Below, piece after piece: positions 25,853 through 36,355 of a stretch of DNA of 64,000 nucleotides (within the stretch, counting starts at the first letter, position 1; every line of letters starts with the position of its first letter). Position numbers and translations under genes: made by a program. The stretch spans positions 13,312-77,311 of the forward strand of contig JANQHR010000080.1 in NCBI GenBank assembly GCA_028282585.1. Direction: 5' to 3'. This stretch comes from Bacteroidales bacterium. Its GTDB lineage: Bacteria; Bacteroidota; Bacteroidia; Bacteroidales; UBA12077. The notes under the pieces are model-generated. The model saw nothing but the letters and a program-made list of their open reading frames with translations. It ran no database searches and had not been told where the DNA came from.

Positions 25853-26860
25853 ATGACTATTCAAGAACAATTACTAAATAAAATAAATAATAAGACCAAA
25901 CCATTAGGTTCATTAGGTAAATTAGAAGAAATTGCCTTACAAGTGGGGCAAATCCAAAATACAACCTCACCAAAATTAAAGGAACCAACCATACTTGTTT
26001 TTGCTGCCGACCATGGATTAGCAGATTCAGGAGTAAGTCCTTTTCCAAAGGAAGTTACTCAACAAATGGTTTTAAACTTTTTGAATGGCGGAGCAGCTAT
26101 AAATATATTTAGTAAGCAAAACGGAATTAACTTAAAAGTGATTGATGCCGGAGTTGATGCTGATTTTCAAAACCATCCAAACCTTATTCATGCAAAAATT
26201 GCTAGCGGAACCAAGAACATTCTCGAACGTGCTGCCATGACAATTAAAGAATGTAAGGAAGCCCTGAATAAAGGATCTGAAATTGTTGAGGAACAATTCA
26301 ACAATGGATGCAATATCATCGGATTTGGTGAAATGGGAATCGGAAATACTTCTTCGGCATCCCTTATAATGAGCAAAGTTACAGGTCTTAGTATTGAAGA
26401 GTGTACAGGTAAAGGAACAGGCCATAGTGAAAATGGACTAAAACGTAAAAAGGAAATCCTTAAAAAGGCCGTTGAAAAATACCAATTAAATGGAGACCCG
26501 CTTGAGATCCTTGCAACTTTTGGAGGACTAGAAATCGCTATGATAACAGGAGCCTTTCTAAAAGCTGCTGAATTGAATATGATCATTATGGTTGATGGGT
26601 TTATTGTAACTTCCGCCTTGTTAATCGCTCGAATGATAAATCCTGAAATCCTTTCTAATTGTATCTTTACGCATGTTTCTAACGAACAGGGACATACTAA
26701 AATGCTGGACTATCTAAAAGTTCAACCTGTTTTAAATTTGGGAATGAGATTAGGTGAAGGAACAGGAGCAGCAATTGCATATCCAATTATCCAATCGGCT
26801 GTTAATTTCTTAAATGAAATGGCTAGCTTTGAGGATGCAGGAGTATCTAATAAAGAATAA
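25853..26860 (+). CDS. cobT: Nicotinate-nucleotide--dimethylbenzimidazole phosphoribosyltransferase
   Basis: TKPLGSLGKLE, FAADHG, GEMGIGNT, LGMRLGEGTGA. Confidence 0.97.
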   Translation: MTIQEQLLNKINNKTKPLGSLGKLEEIALQVGQIQNTTSPKLKEPTILVFAADHGLADSGVSPFPKEVTQQMVLNFLNGGAAINIFSKQNGINLKVIDAGVDADFQNHPNLIHAKIASGTKNILERAAMTIKECKEALNKGSEIVEEQFNNGCNIIGFGEMGIGNTSSASLIMSKVTGLSIEECTGKGTGHSENGLKRKKEILKKAVEKYQLNGDPLEILATFGGLEIAMITGAFLKAAELNMIIMVDGFIVTSALLIARMINPEILSNCIFTHVSNEQGHTKMLDYLKVQPVLNLGMRLGEGTGAAIAYPIIQSAVNFLNEMASFEDAGVSNKE

Positions 26861-26943
26861 CTTTCTGGCTACTGGCTTCTTGTTGTCAGTTAACCAGCGA
26901 CTTGTAATCAATAACGGCAAAATAGAATTACAAAACCATTCAT

Positions 26944-27714
26944 ATGAGGAAACAATGGAAGTTAATATTAACAGCAATCATGTTTTATACCAGGATTCCT
27001 GTTCCCAAAAATATTGGTTATTCTGATGAAATATTAAATCAGAGTACAAAATACTTTTCATTTGTTGGTTGGATTGTCGGTGGGTTTGGAGCTCTGATAT
27101 TTTATCTTAGCATATTTATTTTTCCGTTGACAATTTCTATACTATTGAGTATGGTCACCACCATCATGCTTACAGGAGCATTTCATGAAGATGGTTTTGC
27201 CGACTCATGCGATGCATTTGGCGGAGGATGGACCAAGGAAAAGATTCTTGAAATTATGAAAGATTCAAGAATTGGTACGTATGGTACGGTAGGATTAATA
27301 TTTATTCTTGTTACAAAATATTTTACCTTATTCAATGTTGATGCTGCACAAATCCCCTTTGTTTTGTTTGCGTCTCATGCCTTTAGCCGATATACTGCAA
27401 CAGGTATAATCTTCTTTTCTGAGTATGCCCGGGAAAATGCCTCAAGTAAATCAAAACCCGTTGGAAAAAAATTGAATTCCACAGAATATCTGATATCATT
27501 TATTTTTGGTAGTGCTCCTCTCCTTCTGATATCTTATCAGTATTCATATTGGTACCTGTTAATATTTATTACCGCCATACCTGTTATTTTCTTTTTAAAA
27601 AGGTATTTCGAAAAATGGATTGGAGGCTATACAGGCGATGCATTAGGAGCTACCCAACAAATATCAGAAGTCGTTTTTTACCTTACTTTTATTATCATAA
27701 CAAGATTCATCTAA
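26944..27714 (+). CDS. cobS: Adenosylcobinamide-GDP ribazoletransferase
   Basis: TRIP, TGAFHEDGFADSCD, IMKDSRIGTYG, GGYTGDALGA. Confidence 0.97.
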   Translation: MRKQWKLILTAIMFYTRIPVPKNIGYSDEILNQSTKYFSFVGWIVGGFGALIFYLSIFIFPLTISILLSMVTTIMLTGAFHEDGFADSCDAFGGGWTKEKILEIMKDSRIGTYGTVGLIFILVTKYFTLFNVDAAQIPFVLFASHAFSRYTATGIIFFSEYARENASSKSKPVGKKLNSTEYLISFIFGSAPLLLISYQYSYWYLLIFITAIPVIFFLKRYFEKWIGGYTGDALGATQQISEVVFYLTFIIITRFI

Positions 27715-28241
27715 TGAAGCTTTATTTAATTAGACATACCAAAGTAGATGTAGAACACGGCATATGTTACGGGCAATCAGATGTTGGTATAGCAGAATCT
27801 TTTAAGGAAGAAGCTAAAGTAATAAAAAAGCAAATATCAGATATTAAATTTGACAAAATATATTCGAGCCCTCTTTCTCGTTGCAAAAAGCTTTCTGAAT
27901 ACCTTTTTGGCTCCGGAATAAAATACGATGATCGATTAATGGAACTTAATTTTGGCGATTGGGAACTTCAAAAATGGAACAACCTTAGAAATCCAACCAT
28001 TGATGAATGGATGAAAGATTTTGTAAATACTCCTTGCCCTAATGGAGAATCATTTATAGAAATGTACTACCGGGTAAAAGCATTTGTTAATGAAACTAAA
28101 GCCCAAAGCATTGATAACATAGCAATTGTAACTCATGGAGGAGTTATCAGGTGCATTTTAGCATATCTTTTAAATGAAGATTTAAAAGACGCCTTTAAGA
28201 GAGAAATAGGATATGGAGAGGTTGCTGAGTTAAATTTCTAG
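27714..28241 (+). CDS. cobC: Alpha-ribazole phosphatase
   Basis: MKLYLIRH, SSPLSRC, ELNFGDWE, THGGVIR; TAATG overlap with cobS fixes the start at 27714. Confidence 0.92.
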   Translation: MKLYLIRHTKVDVEHGICYGQSDVGIAESFKEEAKVIKKQISDIKFDKIYSSPLSRCKKLSEYLFGSGIKYDDRLMELNFGDWELQKWNNLRNPTIDEWMKDFVNTPCPNGESFIEMYYRVKAFVNETKAQSIDNIAIVTHGGVIRCILAYLLNEDLKDAFKREIGYGEVAELNF

Positions 28242-28315: not shown

Positions 28316-28340
28316 TGAACCAATTATTTTTTAGGTGTAC
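28316..28340 (+). promoter_or_regulatory. ECF-sigma-type promoter TGAACC-N13-GTGTAC for the sigma operon
   Basis: TGAACC aattattttttag GTGTAC, 12 nt before ATG 28353; same boxes and spacing recur at 32556-32580. Confidence 0.8.
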
Positions 28341-28352
28341 AGTTGTTAAAAA

Positions 28353-28553
28353 ATGATGAACCGATACCCAAAATACAAATTAAGCTCATTCAATTCTAAA
28401 TTAATTTTAGGGTCATTTATATTTATAACCTTTAGCTATATACTTATGTATATGGGTTCAAAAAACGGTTTTGAAATATTATCTTTAACAATTTCTCCAA
28501 TTATGCAGGTAATTGGTTATATAACAATTGTAGTTGCAATAATTAAAAACTAA
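28353..28553 (+). CDS. Small two-TM membrane protein, DUF3098-like
   Basis: N..L......I...YILM...SLTISPI..VIGY....AI pattern; first gene of the ECF operon. Confidence 0.65.
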   Translation: MMNRYPKYKLSSFNSKLILGSFIFITFSYILMYMGSKNGFEILSLTISPIMQVIGYITIVVAIIKN

Positions 28554-28554
28554 C

Positions 28555-29145
28555 TTGAGTTTTAGTTTTATTAAACATAAAGGTAGCGATGAAGAGTTGC
28601 TTATTTCCATTGGCAATGGGAATAATAATGCCTTCAATGAGTTATATTCCAGGTATAAGGATAGGTTGTTGTATTTCTTCTATAGAATGCTTTCCCAGGA
28701 CAAGGAGTTAGCAAAGGATTTCTTACAAGAAATATTTATTAAAATCATTAATAAGACACATTTGTTTGACCCTAAAATGAAATTCTCAACATGGATTTTC
28801 AGCATAGCAAATAATATGTGTAAAAATGAATATAGAAAGCAAAATGTCAGAAAGAATACAATAAATCATGAAAATCCTGATTTTATAGATGATAGGCAAG
28901 ATCAGCAAACAAACCATGAACCGGTTCTGAAATTAATTTTTAATCAACTGGAAAATTTTGATGATACTCATAAGTCGGCTTTCTTATTAAAATATAGAGA
29001 AGGCTTTAAAGTTGAAGAAATTAGCGAAATACTTGATTTACCTGTTGGTACAGTTAAATCACGATTATTTTATACAAGAAAAAAAATACAGGAAAACATA
29101 AAAAATCAACACCCTGAATTAATTGAACAATATAATTTATATTAA
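28555..29145 (+). CDS. ECF sigma-70 factor
   Basis: SDEELL...G...AF.ELY.RY, DFLQEIFIKI, FSTWIFSIANN.C.N, EISEIL.LPVGTVKSRL. Confidence 0.95.
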   Translation: MSFSFIKHKGSDEELLISIGNGNNNAFNELYSRYKDRLLYFFYRMLSQDKELAKDFLQEIFIKIINKTHLFDPKMKFSTWIFSIANNMCKNEYRKQNVRKNTINHENPDFIDDRQDQQTNHEPVLKLIFNQLENFDDTHKSAFLLKYREGFKVEEISEILDLPVGTVKSRLFYTRKKIQENIKNQHPELIEQYNLY

Positions 29146-29147
29146 CT

Positions 29148-29498
29148 ATGGATACCTTTGATGACTTTTTAACACAAAAACTAAAAAATGACAAGACTGG
29201 TATTGATATTGATAATTCTTCATTCAAACACCTTCATTATATAGTAAACCTGAATGCTACAAAATCTAGTGTAAAAAGAAACTCAATGTTTAGTTTTATT
29301 TCTGATTTTTTAAGCCCAAGGTTCATTATTGCTAAAGTTGCAATTGTAAGCATATTGTTGGTTCTTTTTATTGAAAATAAAGAAAACAGGCAGCATGATA
29401 GTTTTATTTACCATGCTGACTCTACAGTTACTCATAAAAATTCGTTTGATTCAATATCAGGTTACAGTAGCCCAATCAGCGATACATTATACCGTTAA
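29148..29498 (+). CDS. Putative single-pass anti-sigma factor
   Basis: Starts 2 nt after the sigma stop; soluble N-terminus, one TM (FIIAKVAIVSILLVLFI), 41-aa tail with four D-S/T-x motifs. Confidence 0.7.
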   Translation: MDTFDDFLTQKLKNDKTGIDIDNSSFKHLHYIVNLNATKSSVKRNSMFSFISDFLSPRFIIAKVAIVSILLVLFIENKENRQHDSFIYHADSTVTHKNSFDSISGYSSPISDTLYR

Positions 29499-32400
29499 TT
29501 TAATACCTTATAAAAATATCCATAGTAAGTATTTAAATCATTTAAAACACTATTTCCATTATCGCTGATTACATATTTAATACTTTCAAGTTGTTGCAAT
29601 AAATAAAGATTCATTCTAATATTATTAGCCAATCCCGGTAATAAATTTTCATCAAACCTTTTGTAATAATCCAATTCATTTTTAACATCATTTCTAAAAT
29701 CATTAAATAGTTGAATTGCTTTACTTTCTTGGCCCGCTAAAAAATATGATTCAATAATTGTTACAAAACTAAACCTGTAAGGCACTTTTTCTTTTGGGAA
29801 CAACTCTAAACATTTATTTAGCAACTTAACAGCTCTTTCGTTCTCGCCCTCTTTTATAAGGTTTCGAGCAACATTATTAAACTGTTCTCTAATTTGCATG
29901 GTTGATACAATTCTCACATTTGTCCAATCCAACATAACATTATCATTATTAACTCCTCCCCAATTAAATTCATTCATAAACTTATTATACTGATAACCTG
30001 AATTTGATAATATAGTTGTGCTTATTAAGCTGTCTTTACTAAATGGCATTAAACGATAAGCAAATCCTTCCCTATATAAATACTTTTCTAATCCGGTTCC
30101 TGATAATTTTGCTGGATTCAAAAAATATACCGGGCGTTTCCAATCATTATTTAAAATAATATCTAAAACTAAAAGTTCTGTTCTAAATAAATGGTTGTCA
30201 TTTAATTGAAAATAAATATTATCGGGTATCTCATCAACGTCATATTTAAAGCTCGTACACGATTTTATGAAATTTTCCTTATTTACAGAAATAGTAAATT
30301 TTCTTGCAGGAATATAATCCAACATACTTGCTTCATGTGCGGTTAATTTAGTTTTCGGGTTATCACTACGAATAAAATCAACTAGCTCTTTAAAACCCAC
30401 ATAATCTTTCACTCTTTCATATACAGGTAAATACATTCTTTTACTTCCATGAAAATCTTTATCTTCAAATGAAATTGGAATTGCCCCCATGCCAGGATAA
30501 TCATTTTCTAACTGGCTTATATACCAATCAACAGGAAGAAACTCAATAAGAACTGCCCTTATATCCCTTCTGTATTTTTCTACTTCTTGCGCATACCATA
30601 GAGGGTACGTGTCATTATCTGCTGATGTAAACAAGATTGCATTTTTCTCGCAAGAATTTAAAATATTAAAAGAAAAATCCCGTGCAGTATACCTGTCAGA
30701 CCTGTCATTACCATCCCAGTTTTCACTAATTAAATTTATAGGCAATAGAAAGAACAATAGTATTAGAAAAGATATGTTCAGATACTTACTTTTTCTTTTT
30801 AATATATGAATTAACGCAATAACAGACAATCCTATCCATATTGAAAAAGCATAAAACGAACCAACAAAAACATAATCTCGTTCACGTGGTGTTATTGGAA
30901 CCTCATTTAAGTATATTACTATAGCAATTCCCGTTAAAAAGAATAATAAAAATGTTATTATGAAATTTCTCTGGTCTTTTTTATAATGAAATACCATACC
31001 AATCAAACCAAATAATAGCGGCAGCATAAAATATTTATTCCTTGCAGGATTATTTTCATATTTATCGGGCAGATTATCCTGAGGGCCTAACCTTAGTTCA
31101 TCCAAAGGTTTTATACCTGAAATCCAGTTTCCATGCATAATTTCTCCAAAACTTTGAATGTTATTTTGCCTGCCTGAAAAATTCCACATGAAATACCTGA
31201 AATACATATGGCCAAGTTGATATTTAATAAAAAAAGCCATGTTATCGCGAAATGTTGGAGTTATAATAATTTCTTCATTTCCATTTCTTCCTGCCTTGAT
31301 TTTCTTTCCCTTTATTTTTATCCATCGTTCATATTCTGGTGCGTGTTCATCAACTAAACTAGCCATTCTTGGAAATAAAGTGAGTGTTCTTTCGTCAAAA
31401 ACATAATCCGGATTTAATTCTTTTTTAATATATCTTCCGTTAAAAGGTTTGTAGCTACCTCGACCAACAGATTTCAGAATCGGTGAGTTATAATTATTTC
31501 CATAAATTAAAGGGCGCTTACCATATTGCTCGCGGTTTAAATAATCAACAAGCCCAAAAATGTTTTCCACATTATTAATATCAACATAAGGATTTGAAAT
31601 GGAACGAATAACTAATGTTGTGTAAGATGAGTAACCAATCAAAAAAACAGTAACGGATAAAACAATTGTTCTTAATATGTTCTTATTATATTTTGCAGAA
31701 TACCAAAGCAAATACGTTATAGTTGAAATAATTATTATAATATAAAAAATCACCCCGGTATAAAAAGGCAGTTTAAAAACATTAACAAAAAGTAAATCAG
31801 TATAAGCAGCAGTTTGAACGATTCCTGGAATTAATACAAACATCAGAAAAAAGAGAATAAGAAAAGAAAATAACAATGCTTTAATGGTATCTTTATTATT
31901 AACATTATAACGTTTAAAATAATAAAGTAACACGATTGGAGGAATTGCAAGAAGGTTCAATAAATGAACCCCAATTGACAAGCCCATTAAAAAGAAAATT
32001 AATAATATCCATTTGTCACTATTGGGGTTGCCGACTTGTGATTCCCACTTAAGCATTAACCAAAAAACCAATGCGGTAAAAAAAGAAGATGTTGCATACA
32101 CTTCCCCTTCAACGGCCGAAAACCAAAATGTGTCGGTAAAGGCGAAACTTAAAGAACCAATAAATGCTGCAGTTAATACATAAACTGAATAAGTTAACGA
32201 ATCATTTTTAAAATTACCTACTAGTTTCCTACCAAACCATTCAATTGTCCAAAACAAAAACATAATGGTAAATGCACTTGCTATTGCCGATAATAAATTA
32301 ATCATATATGCCACCTTCGAAACATCATTACCGGCAAATAAACTAACGATACGGCCAATTATCATAAATACCGGTGCTCCCGGGGCATGCCCAACCTGTA

Positions 32401-32530
32401 GCTTATTAGCACAGGTAATAAACTCACTACAGTCCCAATAGCTTATCGTTGGTTCTAAGGTTAAAATATATACTGCTAAGGCGATTAGAAATGTGGACCA
32501 TCCTAGTATAATTGATAACTTCTTTTCCAT
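29495..32530 (-). CDS. DUF2723 / TMEM260-like GT-C membrane glycosyltransferase
   Basis: PTISYWDCSEF, VGHAPGAP, FWFSAVEGEVYA, GVHLLNLL, YLNREQYG, RYFMWNF.GRQ, PRERDY.FVGSF, DNDTYPLWYAQEVE. Confidence 0.92.
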   Translation of the reverse strand: MEKKLSIILGWSTFLIALAVYILTLEPTISYWDCSEFITCANKLQVGHAPGAPVFMIIGRIVSLFAGNDVSKVAYMINLLSAIASAFTIMFLFWTIEWFGRKLVGNFKNDSLTYSVYVLTAAFIGSLSFAFTDTFWFSAVEGEVYATSSFFTALVFWLMLKWESQVGNPNSDKWILLIFFLMGLSIGVHLLNLLAIPPIVLLYYFKRYNVNNKDTIKALLFSFLILFFLMFVLIPGIVQTAAYTDLLFVNVFKLPFYTGVIFYIIIIISTITYLLWYSAKYNKNILRTIVLSVTVFLIGYSSYTTLVIRSISNPYVDINNVENIFGLVDYLNREQYGKRPLIYGNNYNSPILKSVGRGSYKPFNGRYIKKELNPDYVFDERTLTLFPRMASLVDEHAPEYERWIKIKGKKIKAGRNGNEEIIITPTFRDNMAFFIKYQLGHMYFRYFMWNFSGRQNNIQSFGEIMHGNWISGIKPLDELRLGPQDNLPDKYENNPARNKYFMLPLLFGLIGMVFHYKKDQRNFIITFLLFFLTGIAIVIYLNEVPITPRERDYVFVGSFYAFSIWIGLSVIALIHILKRKSKYLNISFLILLFFLLPINLISENWDGNDRSDRYTARDFSFNILNSCEKNAILFTSADNDTYPLWYAQEVEKYRRDIRAVLIEFLPVDWYISQLENDYPGMGAIPISFEDKDFHGSKRMYLPVYERVKDYVGFKELVDFIRSDNPKTKLTAHEASMLDYIPARKFTISVNKENFIKSCTSFKYDVDEIPDNIYFQLNDNHLFRTELLVLDIILNNDWKRPVYFLNPAKLSGTGLEKYLYREGFAYRLMPFSKDSLISTTILSNSGYQYNKFMNEFNWGGVNNDNVMLDWTNVRIVSTMQIREQFNNVARNLIKEGENERAVKLLNKCLELFPKEKVPYRFSFVTIIESYFLAGQESKAIQLFNDFRNDVKNELDYYKRFDENLLPGLANNIRMNLYLLQQLESIKYVISDNGNSVLNDLNTYYGYFYKVLN

Positions 32531-32555
32531 AATTTTATACTTTTTTAATTTAATG

Positions 32556-32580
32556 GTACACTCAAAAAAAATAAGGTTCA
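32556..32580 (-). promoter_or_regulatory. ECF-sigma-type promoter TGAACC-N13-GTGTAC for the DUF2723 gene
   Basis: Minus strand TGAACC ttattttttttga GTGTAC, 25 nt before ATG 32530 and just downstream of the dcp terminator. Confidence 0.8.
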
Positions 32581-32590
32581 GTTTGAAAAT

Positions 32591-32618
32591 AAAAAAAGCG
32601 CAACCAATTGGCTGCGCT
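32591..32618 (-). terminator. Intrinsic terminator of dcp
   Basis: AGCGCAGCCAATTGGTTGCGC followed by T7. Confidence 0.85.
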
Positions 32619-32639: not shown

Positions 32640-34751
32640 CTATTTTAATCCTCTATTTTCTAATAAAGCATCAATAGTAGGTTCCTGACCTCGGAATTTT
32701 AAATATTGAACCATTCCATCGCCCATGCCATTTTCTGCCAGACAATGTTTTCTGAATTTAGCAGCTAGTTCCTGGTTAAATAAATCACCACTTTCTTTAA
32801 ATGCGTTAAATGCATCGGAATCTAACTGTTCTGCCCACATATAAACATAATACCCTGCTGAATAACTACTTCCGCCAAAAATATGAGAGAAATAAGTGCT
32901 TTTATATCTAGGAATAATTTCGTCAATTAAACCAATTTTATTCATTGCTTCTTCTTCGAATTTATTCACATCAATATTTTCGGTTTCCTGTGTTGTATGA
33001 TAATCCAGATCAAGTAACGAAGCTGCAACATACTCCACTGTTGCAAATCCCTGATTAAAATGACCGCTATTCTCAATCTTTTTGATTAACTCATCCGGCA
33101 TTGCTTCTCCCGTTTCATAATGTTTCGCATATTCTTTAATAATTGAAGGTGCAGCCGCCCAGTGTTCCATAATTTGCGAAGGTAACTCAACATAATCTCT
33201 AGGAACATCACGCGAAGTTCTTCTGTAATGACCATCTGCAAAGAAATTGTGTAATGCATGACCAAATTCGTGGAAATAAGTTAAGGTTTCATCCCAACTC
33301 AATAAAGCAGGTTTATCACCTGTTGGTCGAGTAAAATTACATACAATATAAACTACAGGAGTAATCTTCTTTCCGTCTTCATAAGCTCCACTTCTCATAG
33401 CACCACACCAAGCACCACCTCTTTTACCCGGACGTGGGTGGTTATCAATATAAAGAATTGCCAAATGGTCACCATTAGCTTCTTTTACTTCAAATGTTTG
33501 AACCTCTTCATGATAAACCGGAATATCAGTTCTTTCTTCGAAAGTTAAACCATACAACTGGTTAGAAACATAAAAAATTCCTTCACGAACATTATCCATA
33601 GATAAGTAAGGTTTAATTTCTTCTTCATCCAAATCAAATTTTTGTTTACGCAATTTTTCGGCATAATACCACCAATCCCAAGATTCCAGATCAAAGTTCC
33701 CTCCTTCAGTATCAATGATTTTTTGCATTTCATCGCGCTCCTGCTTAGCAACTTTTAAAGCTGGTTTCCAAACTTGATGTAAGAAATTATAAACGTTTTC
33801 AGGAGTTTTAGCCATATTGTTATCAATAACATATTCAGCATAATTATTGAATCCTAATAGCTCAGCTCTCCGGTCACGTAGTTTTACTAATTTGGCAATA
33901 TTAGCTTTGTTATCTTTATTATTATCATTATTACCTCTTTGATACATGGCTTTATATAACTTTTCTCTTAAATCGCGCTTTGGCGAATAAGTCAAAAATG
34001 GGATCCAGCTTGGTTTTTGAAGTGTAAATACCCATTTACCTTCCATTCCGTTTTGTTGTGCAGCTTCGACTGCAGCAGAAATAACACCTGCAGGTAATCC
34101 AACAAGATCCTCTTCATTATCAATAACTAATTTAAAATCATTGGTTTCGGCCAATAGGTTTTGTCCAAACTCTAAAGTAAGCATTGAAATTTCCTGGTTT
34201 ATACCTTTTAATTCCTCTCGTTGCTCTTCCGGAAGTGCAGCCCCATTTCTTTCGAAATCTCTATAATACTTTTCAACTACTCTCATTTGCTCCTGGTCTA
34301 ACCCGAATGTTTCCCTCTTGTCATAAACAGCCTTAATTCTTTGGAAAAGATCCTGATTTAATCCAATCTCATTTCTATAAGCTGACATGATCGGACTCAA
34401 CTCACGCGCTATTTTTTGTAAGGTTGGGGTTGTATTTGCACTATTTAGTGCATAAAAAACATATGCTCTTCTTAGTATATCTTCTCCCTGATCAAATGGA
34501 ACAATTGTGTTTTCAAAAGTAGGTTCTTCAGTATTTGATATTATAACCTTAATTTTTGCTTTTGATGCTTCAATACCAGCTTCGAATGCAGGAATAAAAT
34601 GAGATGTGTCAATTAAATCGAATGGTGGAACCTGAAATGGTGTATCGAATTCCGATAATAATGGATTTTCGTTTGATTTCATTTCATTTTTGTTAGTGCA
34701 ACTATAAAAAAGCATAGTTGCGAGAATAAAAAGTAATGTAAGTTTTTTCAT
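32640..34751 (-). CDS. dcp: M3-family metallopeptidase (peptidyl-dipeptidase Dcp-like), lipoprotein
   Basis: Lipobox FYSC, NPLL, KRGGAW, FHEFGHALH, VELPSQIME, YSAGYY.Y.WAE.LD.D. Confidence 0.9.
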   Translation of the reverse strand: MKKLTLLFILATMLFYSCTNKNEMKSNENPLLSEFDTPFQVPPFDLIDTSHFIPAFEAGIEASKAKIKVIISNTEEPTFENTIVPFDQGEDILRRAYVFYALNSANTTPTLQKIARELSPIMSAYRNEIGLNQDLFQRIKAVYDKRETFGLDQEQMRVVEKYYRDFERNGAALPEEQREELKGINQEISMLTLEFGQNLLAETNDFKLVIDNEEDLVGLPAGVISAAVEAAQQNGMEGKWVFTLQKPSWIPFLTYSPKRDLREKLYKAMYQRGNNDNNKDNKANIAKLVKLRDRRAELLGFNNYAEYVIDNNMAKTPENVYNFLHQVWKPALKVAKQERDEMQKIIDTEGGNFDLESWDWWYYAEKLRKQKFDLDEEEIKPYLSMDNVREGIFYVSNQLYGLTFEERTDIPVYHEEVQTFEVKEANGDHLAILYIDNHPRPGKRGGAWCGAMRSGAYEDGKKITPVVYIVCNFTRPTGDKPALLSWDETLTYFHEFGHALHNFFADGHYRRTSRDVPRDYVELPSQIMEHWAAAPSIIKEYAKHYETGEAMPDELIKKIENSGHFNQGFATVEYVAASLLDLDYHTTQETENIDVNKFEEEAMNKIGLIDEIIPRYKSTYFSHIFGGSSYSAGYYVYMWAEQLDSDAFNAFKESGDLFNQELAAKFRKHCLAENGMGDGMVQYLKFRGQEPTIDALLENRGLK

Positions 34752-35089: not shown

Positions 35090-35545
35090 TCAATAACCTA
35101 TTACCCAAAGTACCTTTTGTTCTTCAAGGCATTTATCAGTAATCTCAATTAATCCTTTATTAACTTCTATTAATTGATCAAGATAGTGCTTCCACTTCTC
35201 TTTCCAGTTTTGATCTTCAAGGGTAAGTTCATCAATAAACCCCTGTCCCAGAAAAACCTGATCCATATGTTGATTGAAATCATCCAGGCTTTTAATATTC
35301 TGTAATGACTCTAACTTATCGGATAACTCATTACGAAGTGGAACAATATTTCTTACATTATATTTCGTAGCTCCAAAAAATTCGTATAATTTATTCGCGT
35401 TTTCAAAACATTTAGTAAACAAGTTAAACACTTCACTTTCAACATATCTAGACTCTGAATCGCCTTTTATATAGTTTTCATTATCGCCTGTTGTGTTTAA
35501 CTCAACAATATTTAAATATTCTGAACTAAATAATTCAATTCTCAT
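35090..35545 (-). CDS. Hypothetical protein
   Basis: 151-aa ORF ending LWVIGY; no family recognised. Confidence 0.7.
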   Translation of the reverse strand: MRIELFSSEYLNIVELNTTGDNENYIKGDSESRYVESEVFNLFTKCFENANKLYEFFGATKYNVRNIVPLRNELSDKLESLQNIKSLDDFNQHMDQVFLGQGFIDELTLEDQNWKEKWKHYLDQLIEVNKGLIEITDKCLEEQKVLWVIGY

Positions 35546-35677
35546 GACAAATATCTATATGTTACATGTTATACGTTTTTAAATTTATTAATAATAACGG
35601 ATATCAACAAAATTAATTTTAAACAAATGTTAAACATTAAGTTTTCATCTTACTATCTTTATCCAAAATTTAATGAA

Positions 35678-36355
35678 ATGACAGGAACGATTATAAATGC
35701 AGTTGCAATAATTATTGGAAGTGTAATCGGGTTATCTTTAAACGCTAAACTTCCTGAAAGATTTATTAAAATAGTTTTTCAAGGAATTGGATTGTTTACA
35801 ATATCTATTGGTGTTTATATGTCGGTTAAAACCAATAATTTATTTTTAATGATTATTAGTATTGTTACAGGTGGTATTATAGGAGAAGGAATAAATATTG
35901 AAAAATACATTGACAAATTTGGCGAAACGGTTAAAAATAAGTTTAAGTCTAACAACTCCAAATTTTCTGAAGGATTAACAACTGCTTTTTTGTTATTTTG
36001 TATGGGCTCCGTATCAATTCTTGGCGCTATTGAAGAAGGTTTAGGCAATGAACCAAATCTATTGTTGGCAAAAGCTGTTATGGATGGAGTCTCTTCAATT
36101 GCCTTGGCTGCAGCATTTGGTTTAGGAGTAACTTTCTCTGTTGTACCTTTGATAATATATCAGGGTGGATTAACTTTATTAGCAGCCAGTTTTGGAAATT
36201 ACTTTTCAGAAACAATAATTACAGAATTAACTGCAGTTGGAGGCCTAATGTTAATAGGTTTAGGAATTAACGTTTTAGGCATTAAACAGTTAAAAATATT
36301 AAATATGATACCAGCTTTAATTGTAATTGTTGTATTGGTTTATTTCTTTGGTTAA
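35678..36355 (+). CDS. DUF554 (YqgA-like) membrane protein
   Basis: MTGTIINAVAII.G, LLFCMGSVSILG..EEG, KAVMDG, YQG; start moved to MTGT. Confidence 0.9.
   Translation: MTGTIINAVAIIIGSVIGLSLNAKLPERFIKIVFQGIGLFTISIGVYMSVKTNNLFLMIISIVTGGIIGEGINIEKYIDKFGETVKNKFKSNNSKFSEGLTTAFLLFCMGSVSILGAIEEGLGNEPNLLLAKAVMDGVSSIALAAAFGLGVTFSVVPLIIYQGGLTLLAASFGNYFSETIITELTAVGGLMLIGLGINVLGIKQLKILNMIPALIVIVVLVYFFG

Follow-up and report, generated by a model that had tools for sequence, protein, structure and literature searches.

The described regulatory systems that most closely resemble the locus presented here are modules of the RpoE–RseA and SigW–RsiW type (PMC7826278), in which an extracytoplasmic function (ECF) sigma factor is paired with an anti-sigma factor. 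The locus lies in a stretch of 64,000 nucleotides from a Bacteroidales bacterium of the lineage UBA12077 (GenBank assembly GCA_028282585.1, contig JANQHR010000080.1, positions 13,312 to 77,311 of the forward strand), termed the window throughout. It comprises an operon for a DUF3098-like protein, an ECF sigma factor and an anti-sigma candidate, which converges on a gene for a TMEM260-like (DUF2723) glycosyltransferase. Both transcription units carry the same promoter motif and very probably constitute an ECF regulon of two promoters, one at the sigma operon and one at a particular DUF2723 paralog. With more reserve, we propose that the periplasmic tail of the anti-sigma candidate may report on the state of protein O-glycosylation.

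As in the RpoE–RseA and SigW–RsiW modules, the sigma factor belongs to group 4 and has regions 2 and 4 only, the regulon is small, the co-transcribed single-pass protein is predicted to clamp both regions, and an AAC-containing −35 block stands before the module's own operon. The differences lie in the anti-sigma candidate and in the other genes under control. The N-terminus of the candidate shows neither a Pfam anti-sigma family (none in the 22 members scanned at E ≤ 0.1) nor the HxxxCxxC zinc motif, and its periplasmic part of about 41 residues is made of O-glycosylation sequons. In addition, a DUF3098 gene heads the operon, and the only other recognisable target is a glycosyltransferase of the GT-C fold.

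Within the same phylum, an ECF pair has been described in the EcfO-like sigma factor and its outer-membrane-spanning anti-sigma factor (PMC9308784); in the available part of that study, activation lengthens the O-antigen and induces a lipopolysaccharide (LPS) glycosyltransferase. Unlike the protein encoded here, that anti-sigma factor is very large and has an outer-membrane beta-barrel, and the system answers envelope damage. Its regulon is also larger, the mutant showing altered expression of 15 genes, and the same part of the study reports neither a DUF2723 target nor a sequon tail.

The modification system to which the tail points is the general O-glycosylation of the Bacteroidota, whose sequon is given as D-(S/T)-(A/I/L/V/M/T) in the available portions of two publications (PMC8550257; PMC12871550). 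In those portions of the second, a 2025 review, the OTase (the transferase that attaches the core glycan), flippase, ligase and core-glycan machinery are listed as undiscovered, mannose is named as the reducing-end sugar in most species, homologs of eukaryotic O-mannosylation proteins are recommended as a search target, and no regulator, sensor or initiating transferase is described (PMC12871550). Anti-sigma tails of the kind encoded here carry exactly this sequon three to five times, on the periplasmic side, and the transferase family is found in 300 of 301 sampled genomes of the phylum, matching a phylum-wide system. The link between DUF2723 proteins and general O-glycosylation is one that we infer in this analysis.

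The human relative of the transferase is TMEM260 (structure 9rql; PMC10214176; bioRxiv 10.64898/2026.03.17.711096). The two proteins share the family PF11028, a GT-C core, an alpha/beta domain and helical repeats, together with equivalents of the TMEM260 residues D52, H67 and D441. The bacterial protein exceeds TMEM260 by about 300 residues and has a beta-rich insertion; its donor would be a polyprenyl-phosphate sugar; and TMEM260 modifies IPT domains rather than D-S/T-x sequons.

A preliminary description of the window, made from its letters alone, had supposed that the circuit was undescribed, and our literature searches, which covered papers readable without a subscription, found no description of it. 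Within that scope, no paper ties DUF2723 or TMEM260 homologs, DUF3098, ECF sigma factors or anti-sigma factors to O-glycosylation in the Bacteroidota, and none was found to link TMEM260 with the Bacteroidetes. The TMEM260 discovery paper, the sole paper found that names DUF2723, mentions just 'distant homologs in bacteria', and DUF3098 was met in one unrelated paper. The ECF re-classification paper mentions, in its main text, no Bacteroidetes group with such neighbours; the group descriptions in its supplements may bear on this.

The shared promoter and its two probable targets

The operon is read on the forward strand. Promoter box 1, TGAACC-N13-GTGTAC, an ECF-type −35/−10 pair (28316–28340, +), lies 12 nt before the ATG of the first gene, which encodes a small membrane protein of 66 aa with two hydrophobic segments (28353–28553, +). 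The gene for the ECF sigma-70 factor follows (28555–29145, +; 196 aa, TTG start), and then that for the 116-aa single-pass anti-sigma candidate (29148–29498, +), with gaps of 1–2 nt between the genes. On the opposite strand, promoter box 2, again TGAACC-N13-GTGTAC (32556–32580, −), lies 25 nt before the ATG of the putatively ECF-regulated DUF2723 paralog, which encodes a GT-C glycosyltransferase of 1011 aa (29495–32530, −). The two units meet tail to tail, the stop of the transferase gene overlapping that of the 116-aa gene by 4 bases (29495–29498), and because of this overlap transcripts from boxes 1 and 2 must collide. As a side observation, in Prolixibacteraceae the corresponding two genes lie about 100 nt apart, and the 4-base overlap is a topic also noted for the loci L014 and L015.

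Pfam matches and open reading frames (ORFs) bear out the gene layout that the preliminary description had claimed. Its account of the two boxes is also correct: they are identical at 12/12 positions and equally spaced, with T-rich spacers. The sigma factor matches Sigma70_r2 (2.5e-14), Sigma70_r4_2 (4.7e-10) and Sigma70_ECF (2.7e-07), and reaches 101.5 bits with TIGR02937 (cut-off 42.9), with no specific equivalog model above its cut-off. None of the four proteins (66, 196, 116 and 1011 aa) receives a specific name from NCBIfam. The label 'DUF3098-like' given earlier to the 66-aa protein is justified by homology, PF11297 being matched by 18 of 20 positional homologs that were aligned (best E 3.6e-24); the window's own copy is a divergent homolog with a shorter loop and no match to PF11297 at E ≤ 0.01.

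ECF promoters have a two-block layout, with AAC in the upstream (−35) block, and the two boxes follow it. The pattern TGAACC-N13-GTGTAC occurs twice in the window even when one mismatch is allowed, compared with a mean of 0.08 in shuffled sequence, and none of 100 shuffles contains two or more. A scan of the whole genome (4,888,182 bases in 173 contigs), proposed in the preliminary description, returns the same two sites at the two units as the only exact matches; seven further sites lie one mismatch away, and a reversed control pattern returned two. A weight matrix built from 54 sigma-operon sites of relatives, with the consensus TGAACCTTT-N9-11-CGTGTACAG, likewise ranks boxes 1 and 2 as its top two matches in the genome, at 24.3 and 22.3 bits.

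No convincing third target was found in this genome, the next matrix matches (20.4, 20.4, 19.3, 17.9 and 17.5 bits) having no full −10 block. Four of these five were rejected as lying within or antisense to ORFs, and the fifth, an intergenic site at C61:51234 (+) (locus L004, around 1501; TGAACCTTT-N10-GGTGTTC, 20.4 bits), is not followed by an ORF. A separate feature near this last site is an S-adenosylmethionine (SAM) riboswitch (RF00162, 66.2 bits), about 500 nt downstream.

A protein search with the sigma factor, with one genome taken per species, returned 381 relatives, of which the best 80 loci were kept. Two architectures account for all of them except L035, which has neither. Type A (42 loci) is found in Bacteroidales metagenome-assembled genomes, with sigma identities of 73–79%, and in Prolixibacteraceae, at about 50%; its gene order is a DUF3098 gene of about 70 aa, the sigma gene and a gene for a single-pass protein of about 120 aa. 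Type B (37 loci) occurs in Flavobacteriales and others at about 45% sigma identity, and places the sigma gene between genes for a protein of 350–450 aa and one of 230–420 aa. The motif heads the sigma operon in both types, down to a sigma identity of about 45%. The window comes from a metagenome-assembled genome; the one sequencing run listed as containing the stretch is a DNA metagenome, possibly the source of the assembly, and no RNA run was listed. A cultured relative, Tangfeifania diversioriginum DSM 27063 (locus L032), carries the module, complete with operon, convergent DUF2723 gene and two boxes.

Conservation extends to the second promoter. Nineteen type-A loci have a complete DUF2723 gene adjacent to the operon, and in 18 of them this gene is convergent and bears the motif, which sits 41–76 nt upstream of the DUF2723 protein match and scores 9.6–31.1 bits (at least 17 bits in 16/18). 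At the nineteenth, L071, the gene follows in the same direction as part of the operon, and no separate motif precedes it. Positions that score at least 18 bits number 42 in the 663,534 nt scanned and are essentially the collected motif sites; at L019 the motif also precedes a partially recovered DUF2723 gene.

Loci at which the linkage is broken were examined separately. Fifteen type-A loci have no DUF2723 gene in the fetched flank, and for 10 of these the whole genome was searched. Nine of the ten genomes (G001–G004 and G011–G015) hold 2–5 exact TGAACY-N13-14-GTGTAC sites each, and in all nine one site stands at the sigma operon while another lies directly upstream of a DUF2723 gene 9–23 kb off or on another contig. 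The remaining exact matches in the relatives' genomes are mostly intragenic; one recurs inside a 563-aa frame in G001, G002 and G015. Because of the pattern in these nine unlinked genomes, at L071 and in G005 (discussed below), the motif can be said to travel with the DUF2723 gene, to be dispensable when that gene joins the operon, and to mark one particular paralog. The preliminary description had held that the sigma factor transcribes itself and the transferase, and had staked this in part on conservation of linkage and motif; with the motif at 18/19 adjacent genes and in 9/9 unlinked genomes, the claim gains in silico support. On this sequence evidence, a regulon of two promoters, those of the sigma operon and of the DUF2723 paralog, is very probable.

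Type B was also considered as a carrier of the same regulon, with a looser pattern in five genomes, but 9–18 matches in each compared with 3–9 for the control are uninformative. The single DUF2723 genes of type B genomes have no matrix match above 8.6 bits nearby, and for this reason the DUF2723 link is not extended to type B. A further, loosely box-like sequence, TAACCA-N9-10-ATCGTGTAAATGT, is present on the minus strand at a distance of about 470 nt, upstream, from the sigma promoter at many Prolixibacteraceae loci (L028, around 5260; L034, around 5253).

The TMEM260-like transferase and its paralogs

The preliminary description had named DUF2723 as the domain of TMEM260, and the sequence matches agree. 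The transferase (P0004) matches PF11028, the TMEM260-like family, at 236.6 bits (E 2.1e-70), where the cut-off is 24.2. A profile built from 29 homologs, compared with all PDB sequences, has human TMEM260 (9rql) as its sole match (E 3.8e-25), in two stretches that cover the first GT-C helices and, further on, the last membrane helix with the start of the luminal domain. Residues D33, H48 and D638 of P0004 align with D52, H67 and D441 of TMEM260 and are invariant in 29/29 homologs. In the part of the TMEM260 preprint that was available, D52 and H67 are described as indispensable at the donor site, D441 of the Rossmann-like domain serves as catalytic base, and the tetratricopeptide repeat (TPR) domain binds the acceptor peptide (bioRxiv 10.64898/2026.03.17.711096).

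An AlphaFold (AF2) model of the protein, with a predicted local distance difference test score (pLDDT) of 77.9 and a predicted template modelling score (pTM) of 0.79, contains GT-C membrane helices, the beta-rich insertion at residues ~351–424, an alpha/beta domain at ~632–830 and helical repeats at 844–1010. The top Foldseek matches of the model are PglB (2.3e-4), STT3, Pmt1/2, Pmt4 and ArnT, with TPR proteins for the C-terminus; 9rql is not among the Foldseek matches. Of 301 Bacteroidota genomes sampled at a completeness of at least 90%, 300 contain PF11028, representing 144/144 genera, and among 14 control genomes it is found only in Bacteroides thetaiotaomicron. Because of its homology to human TMEM260, the only basis for assigning O-mannosyltransferase activity, the DUF2723 protein is probably a protein O-glycosyltransferase, presumably an O-mannosyltransferase.

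The regulated enzyme is one of several. Three PF11028 genes are encoded in the genome, and the other two, whose products are 45% identical to the window's protein, have no motif either in the matrix scan or in their upstream sequence; these two promoterless copies agree with the housekeeping paralog that the preliminary description had predicted. Each of the genomes G001–G004 similarly has one promoterless and one promoter-bearing DUF2723 copy. In an unrooted tree of 29 proteins, from a quick IQ-TREE maximum-likelihood search, a branch with a Shimodaira–Hasegawa-like approximate likelihood ratio test (SH-aLRT) value of 99 separates the 23 promoter-bearing copies from the five promoterless copies and that of L071. 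The tree leaves out L143–L145, which are truncated or were passed over by the filter, the partly recovered genes of L019 and L073, and the genes truncated where the locus ends at L025, L030, L050, L051, L059 and L069.

Pieces of the DUF2723 protein were also met outside the family. The first genes of the 37 type-B loci (for instance L054:4621-5967 (+) and L047:4851-5957) stand behind the same promoter motif and encode a secreted protein of 350–450 aa with no Pfam family. A stretch of about 60 residues in this protein is homologous to the start of the DUF2723 Rossmann-like domain (BLASTP E 8e-06; hhalign probability 91.6%) and takes in the catalytic Asp position. By virtue of this shared stretch, both architectures connect the sigma lineage with a TMEM260-like luminal domain. 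Elsewhere in the genome, outside the window, a protein of about 385 aa with a signal peptide (C81:38-1207 (+)) shares the DUF2723 segment that spans residues 618–660 of the window's protein, at 49% identity (E 3e-07); the first 4 kb of contig C81 contain no sigma gene.

The anti-sigma candidate and what it may sense

The 116-aa protein has no Pfam family and consists of cytoplasmic residues 1–56, in which the window's copy has no Cys, a membrane segment at ~57–75 and a periplasmic tail of residues 76–116. When its residues 1–58 were modelled with the sigma factor, using custom alignments of 22 rows each, the predicted complex had an interface score (ipSAE) of 0.81 (0.82, 0.81 and 0.81 in the three runs), compared with 0.00 for the best of three controls. 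Of 80 solved complexes, 58 attain the mark applied to this score, as do 2 of 110 mismatched pairs; given the custom alignments, these counts are only a rough guide. The runs share at least 96% of their contacts, with a pLDDT of at least 69 for the partner, and the contacts involve sigma residues 19–66 and 122–196, that is, both sigma domains. The protein is accordingly modelled, at the level of prediction, as an anti-sigma factor that clamps sigma regions 2 and 4. The tail is placed in the periplasm because the N-terminus is predicted to bind the cytoplasmic sigma factor and the protein has a single membrane segment.

The tail (29373–29495, +) carries three sequons, D91-S-T, D101-S-I and D112-T-L. 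Across the family, D91, D101 and D112 are the only (nearly) invariant residues of these ~41 positions, each followed by Ser or Thr and then by an aliphatic residue or Thr; that these triplets are the Bacteroidota O-glycosylation sequon D-(S/T)-(A/I/L/V/M/T) is a new observation. Three to five sequons are present in 36 of 40 type-A tails, where shuffled tails are expected to hold 0.13–0.58, and the observed count is reached by at most 3 of 1000 shuffles. Type-B tails are enriched in 0/33 cases. Among the 88 Asp residues of 22 non-redundant tails, Ser or Thr comes next in 78, and A/I/L/V/M/T after that in 68 of these, compared with 9/89 and, for the full sequon, 1/89 in the cytoplasmic parts; the set includes two truncated type-B proteins (L060 and L086), which lower rather than raise the enrichment. 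In the genome as a whole, sequons occur at 0.0027 per residue, and only 21 of 3802 ORFs of at least 110 aa have three or more within 25 residues. Two of the 21 are no longer than 200 aa, and one of these is the anti-sigma candidate.

On balance, we favour an autoregulated ECF/anti-sigma module that induces an extra TMEM260-like transferase and in which the sequon tail may serve as a sentinel for glycosylation. Free sigma factor would read TGAACC-N13-GTGTAC before its own operon and before the transferase gene. The cytoplasmic N-terminus of the anti-sigma factor would hold the sigma factor, leaving the periplasmic tail of about 41 residues exposed as a sentinel substrate of protein O-glycosylation, which the enzyme would modify at these sequons. 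When glycosylation capacity is sufficient, the tail would be glycosylated, the anti-sigma factor stable and the sigma factor sequestered. If capacity became insufficient, the unmodified tail would be degraded or altered and the sigma factor released, inducing the extra transferase and its own operon until capacity is restored, in a negative feedback loop. We infer four of these steps: recognition of the motif by this sigma factor, protein glycosylation by the enzyme at these sequons, attachment of glycans to the tail, and the direction in which the signal acts.

The role of the tail as the sensing input is put forward more tentatively than the circuit around it. It is suggested by the compartment-specific cluster of sequons, by their absence from type B, which has no DUF2723 target, and by the family of the single target. 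The fullest version of the proposal, in which DUF2723 enzymes start the phylum-wide O-glycosylation at D-S/T-x sequons and the module senses glycosylation capacity through an under-glycosylated decoy tail, is a possibility that we regard as doubtful when both parts are required together.

Several observations weigh against the sentinel circuit. One comes from G005, which has the closest sigma factor (79%): it keeps the operon and a tail with three sequons, and its only two DUF2723 genes are promoterless. Because G005 keeps operon and tail with no regulated copy, the module can exist without a regulated DUF2723 target. Among the type-A tails, L032 and L073 have only two sequons each and L071, where the transferase gene is in the operon, has none, with D-S-S instead; the fourth exception, L036, is a mis-called ORF. 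The DUF2723 site of L015 scores just 9.6 bits. Many periplasmic proteins of the Bacteroidota carry sequons, and the tail may be simply glycosylated rather than a sensor. The score of the predicted complex may in part reflect likeness to solved ECF/anti-sigma complexes. On the side of the enzyme, the profile alignment to 9rql excludes the regions of the donor-binding TMEM260 residues R264, Y267 and R355, and the solved GT-C enzymes matched by Foldseek, which include transferases that do not act on proteins, such as ArnT, have low TM-scores (0.25–0.42). Lastly, the quick, unrooted tree leaves a single origin of the regulated clade undemonstrated. As a separate observation, G005 has an intergenic site, TTGAACC-N14-GTGTACAG (L102:1501-1526 (+)), about 40 nt upstream of a gene for a MacB/FtsX-like ABC permease (MacB_PCD 2.2e-13), which is possibly a rewired target.

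The behaviour of G005 and the sequon-poor tails of L071, L032 and L073 (0–2 sequons) also favour an alternative in which the regulon is real, the input is a generic or other envelope signal, received for example through the DUF3098 protein or by regulated proteolysis, and the sequons only stabilise the tail. The conservation of the DUF3098 gene as the first gene of the operon agrees with such an input, as does the precedent of other Bacteroidales ECF systems, which, in the available part of one study, answer envelope stress and alter glycan synthesis (PMC9308784). A generic signal accounts less readily for a tail in which the sequons are nearly the sole conserved residues and in which Asp-Ser/Thr pairs are concentrated relative to the cytoplasmic part, for the unenriched tails of all 33 type-B proteins examined, which have no DUF2723 target, or for a single non-self target that belongs to a family of protein glycosyltransferases. 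We consider this alternative possible but less likely.

A second alternative concerns the enzyme, which might be a GT-C transferase acting on lipid or polysaccharide, in the manner of ArnT or of enzymes of LPS or capsule, so that the circuit would carry out inducible envelope remodelling. The GT-C fold is indeed common to ArnT and to arabinosyltransferases, both among the Foldseek matches, and no bacterial DUF2723 protein with a demonstrated substrate was found in the literature searched. Against this, the sole sequence match to a solved structure is TMEM260, and it takes in the luminal Rossmann-like domain with its invariant catalytic Asp; the helical-repeat C-terminus of the model resembles the peptide-binding TPR of TMEM260; the best fold matches, PglB, STT3 and Pmt, are protein glycosyltransferases; and the partner anti-sigma candidate bears sequons for protein glycosylation. 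A lipid or polysaccharide substrate therefore appears improbable.

That the motif is read by another regulator or another sigma factor, of which the genome encodes several further ECF members, and that its pairing with the operon reflects shared descent of adjoining DNA, is very hard to reconcile with its non-palindromic, ECF-like two-block layout with AAC upstream, its fixed orientation and distance to both start codons, its presence at the operon even in distant type B, its association with the DUF2723 gene in 9/9 genomes with broken linkage and its absence where the gene joins the operon (L071).

If the sentinel circuit is correct, it would be the first case described in which a general protein-glycosylation system of bacteria is under feedback control. 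Its anti-sigma factor would have its own post-translational modification state as signal, a new principle of ECF input, and the module would open a way into how protein glycosylation is regulated in a phylum of central importance to gut and marine ecosystems. It would be an ECF sigma/anti-sigma circuit with a new target and possibly a new sensing principle. Should only the regulon hold, the result would still be a new ECF group, one whose promoter and sole target are defined. The locus ties a near-universal TMEM260-like family genetically to a membrane protein whose tail is little beyond sequon, and it offers a natural acceptor peptide of 41 residues, a candidate enzyme and a promoter that would be expected to be on when O-glycosylation is limiting.

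Flanking features

The DUF2723 gene is preceded on its strand by dcp, which encodes an M3 peptidase (32640–34751, −; Pfam). Of the terminator that the preliminary description had placed between the two genes, a hairpin with a T-run is present after dcp, upstream of box 2 (32597–32618, −), but terminator-like sites in the region are no more frequent than expected by chance, the two found equalling the shuffle mean of 2.0. The other, a candidate only, is a hairpin antisense within the anti-sigma gene, 77 nt past the DUF2723 stop (29391–29418, −). Beyond dcp lie an ORF of 151 aa without a family (35090–35545) and a DUF554 gene (35627–36355). Directly upstream of the module, at 25853–28241 (+), are cobT-like (DBI_PRT), cobS and cobC-like (His_Phos_1) genes.

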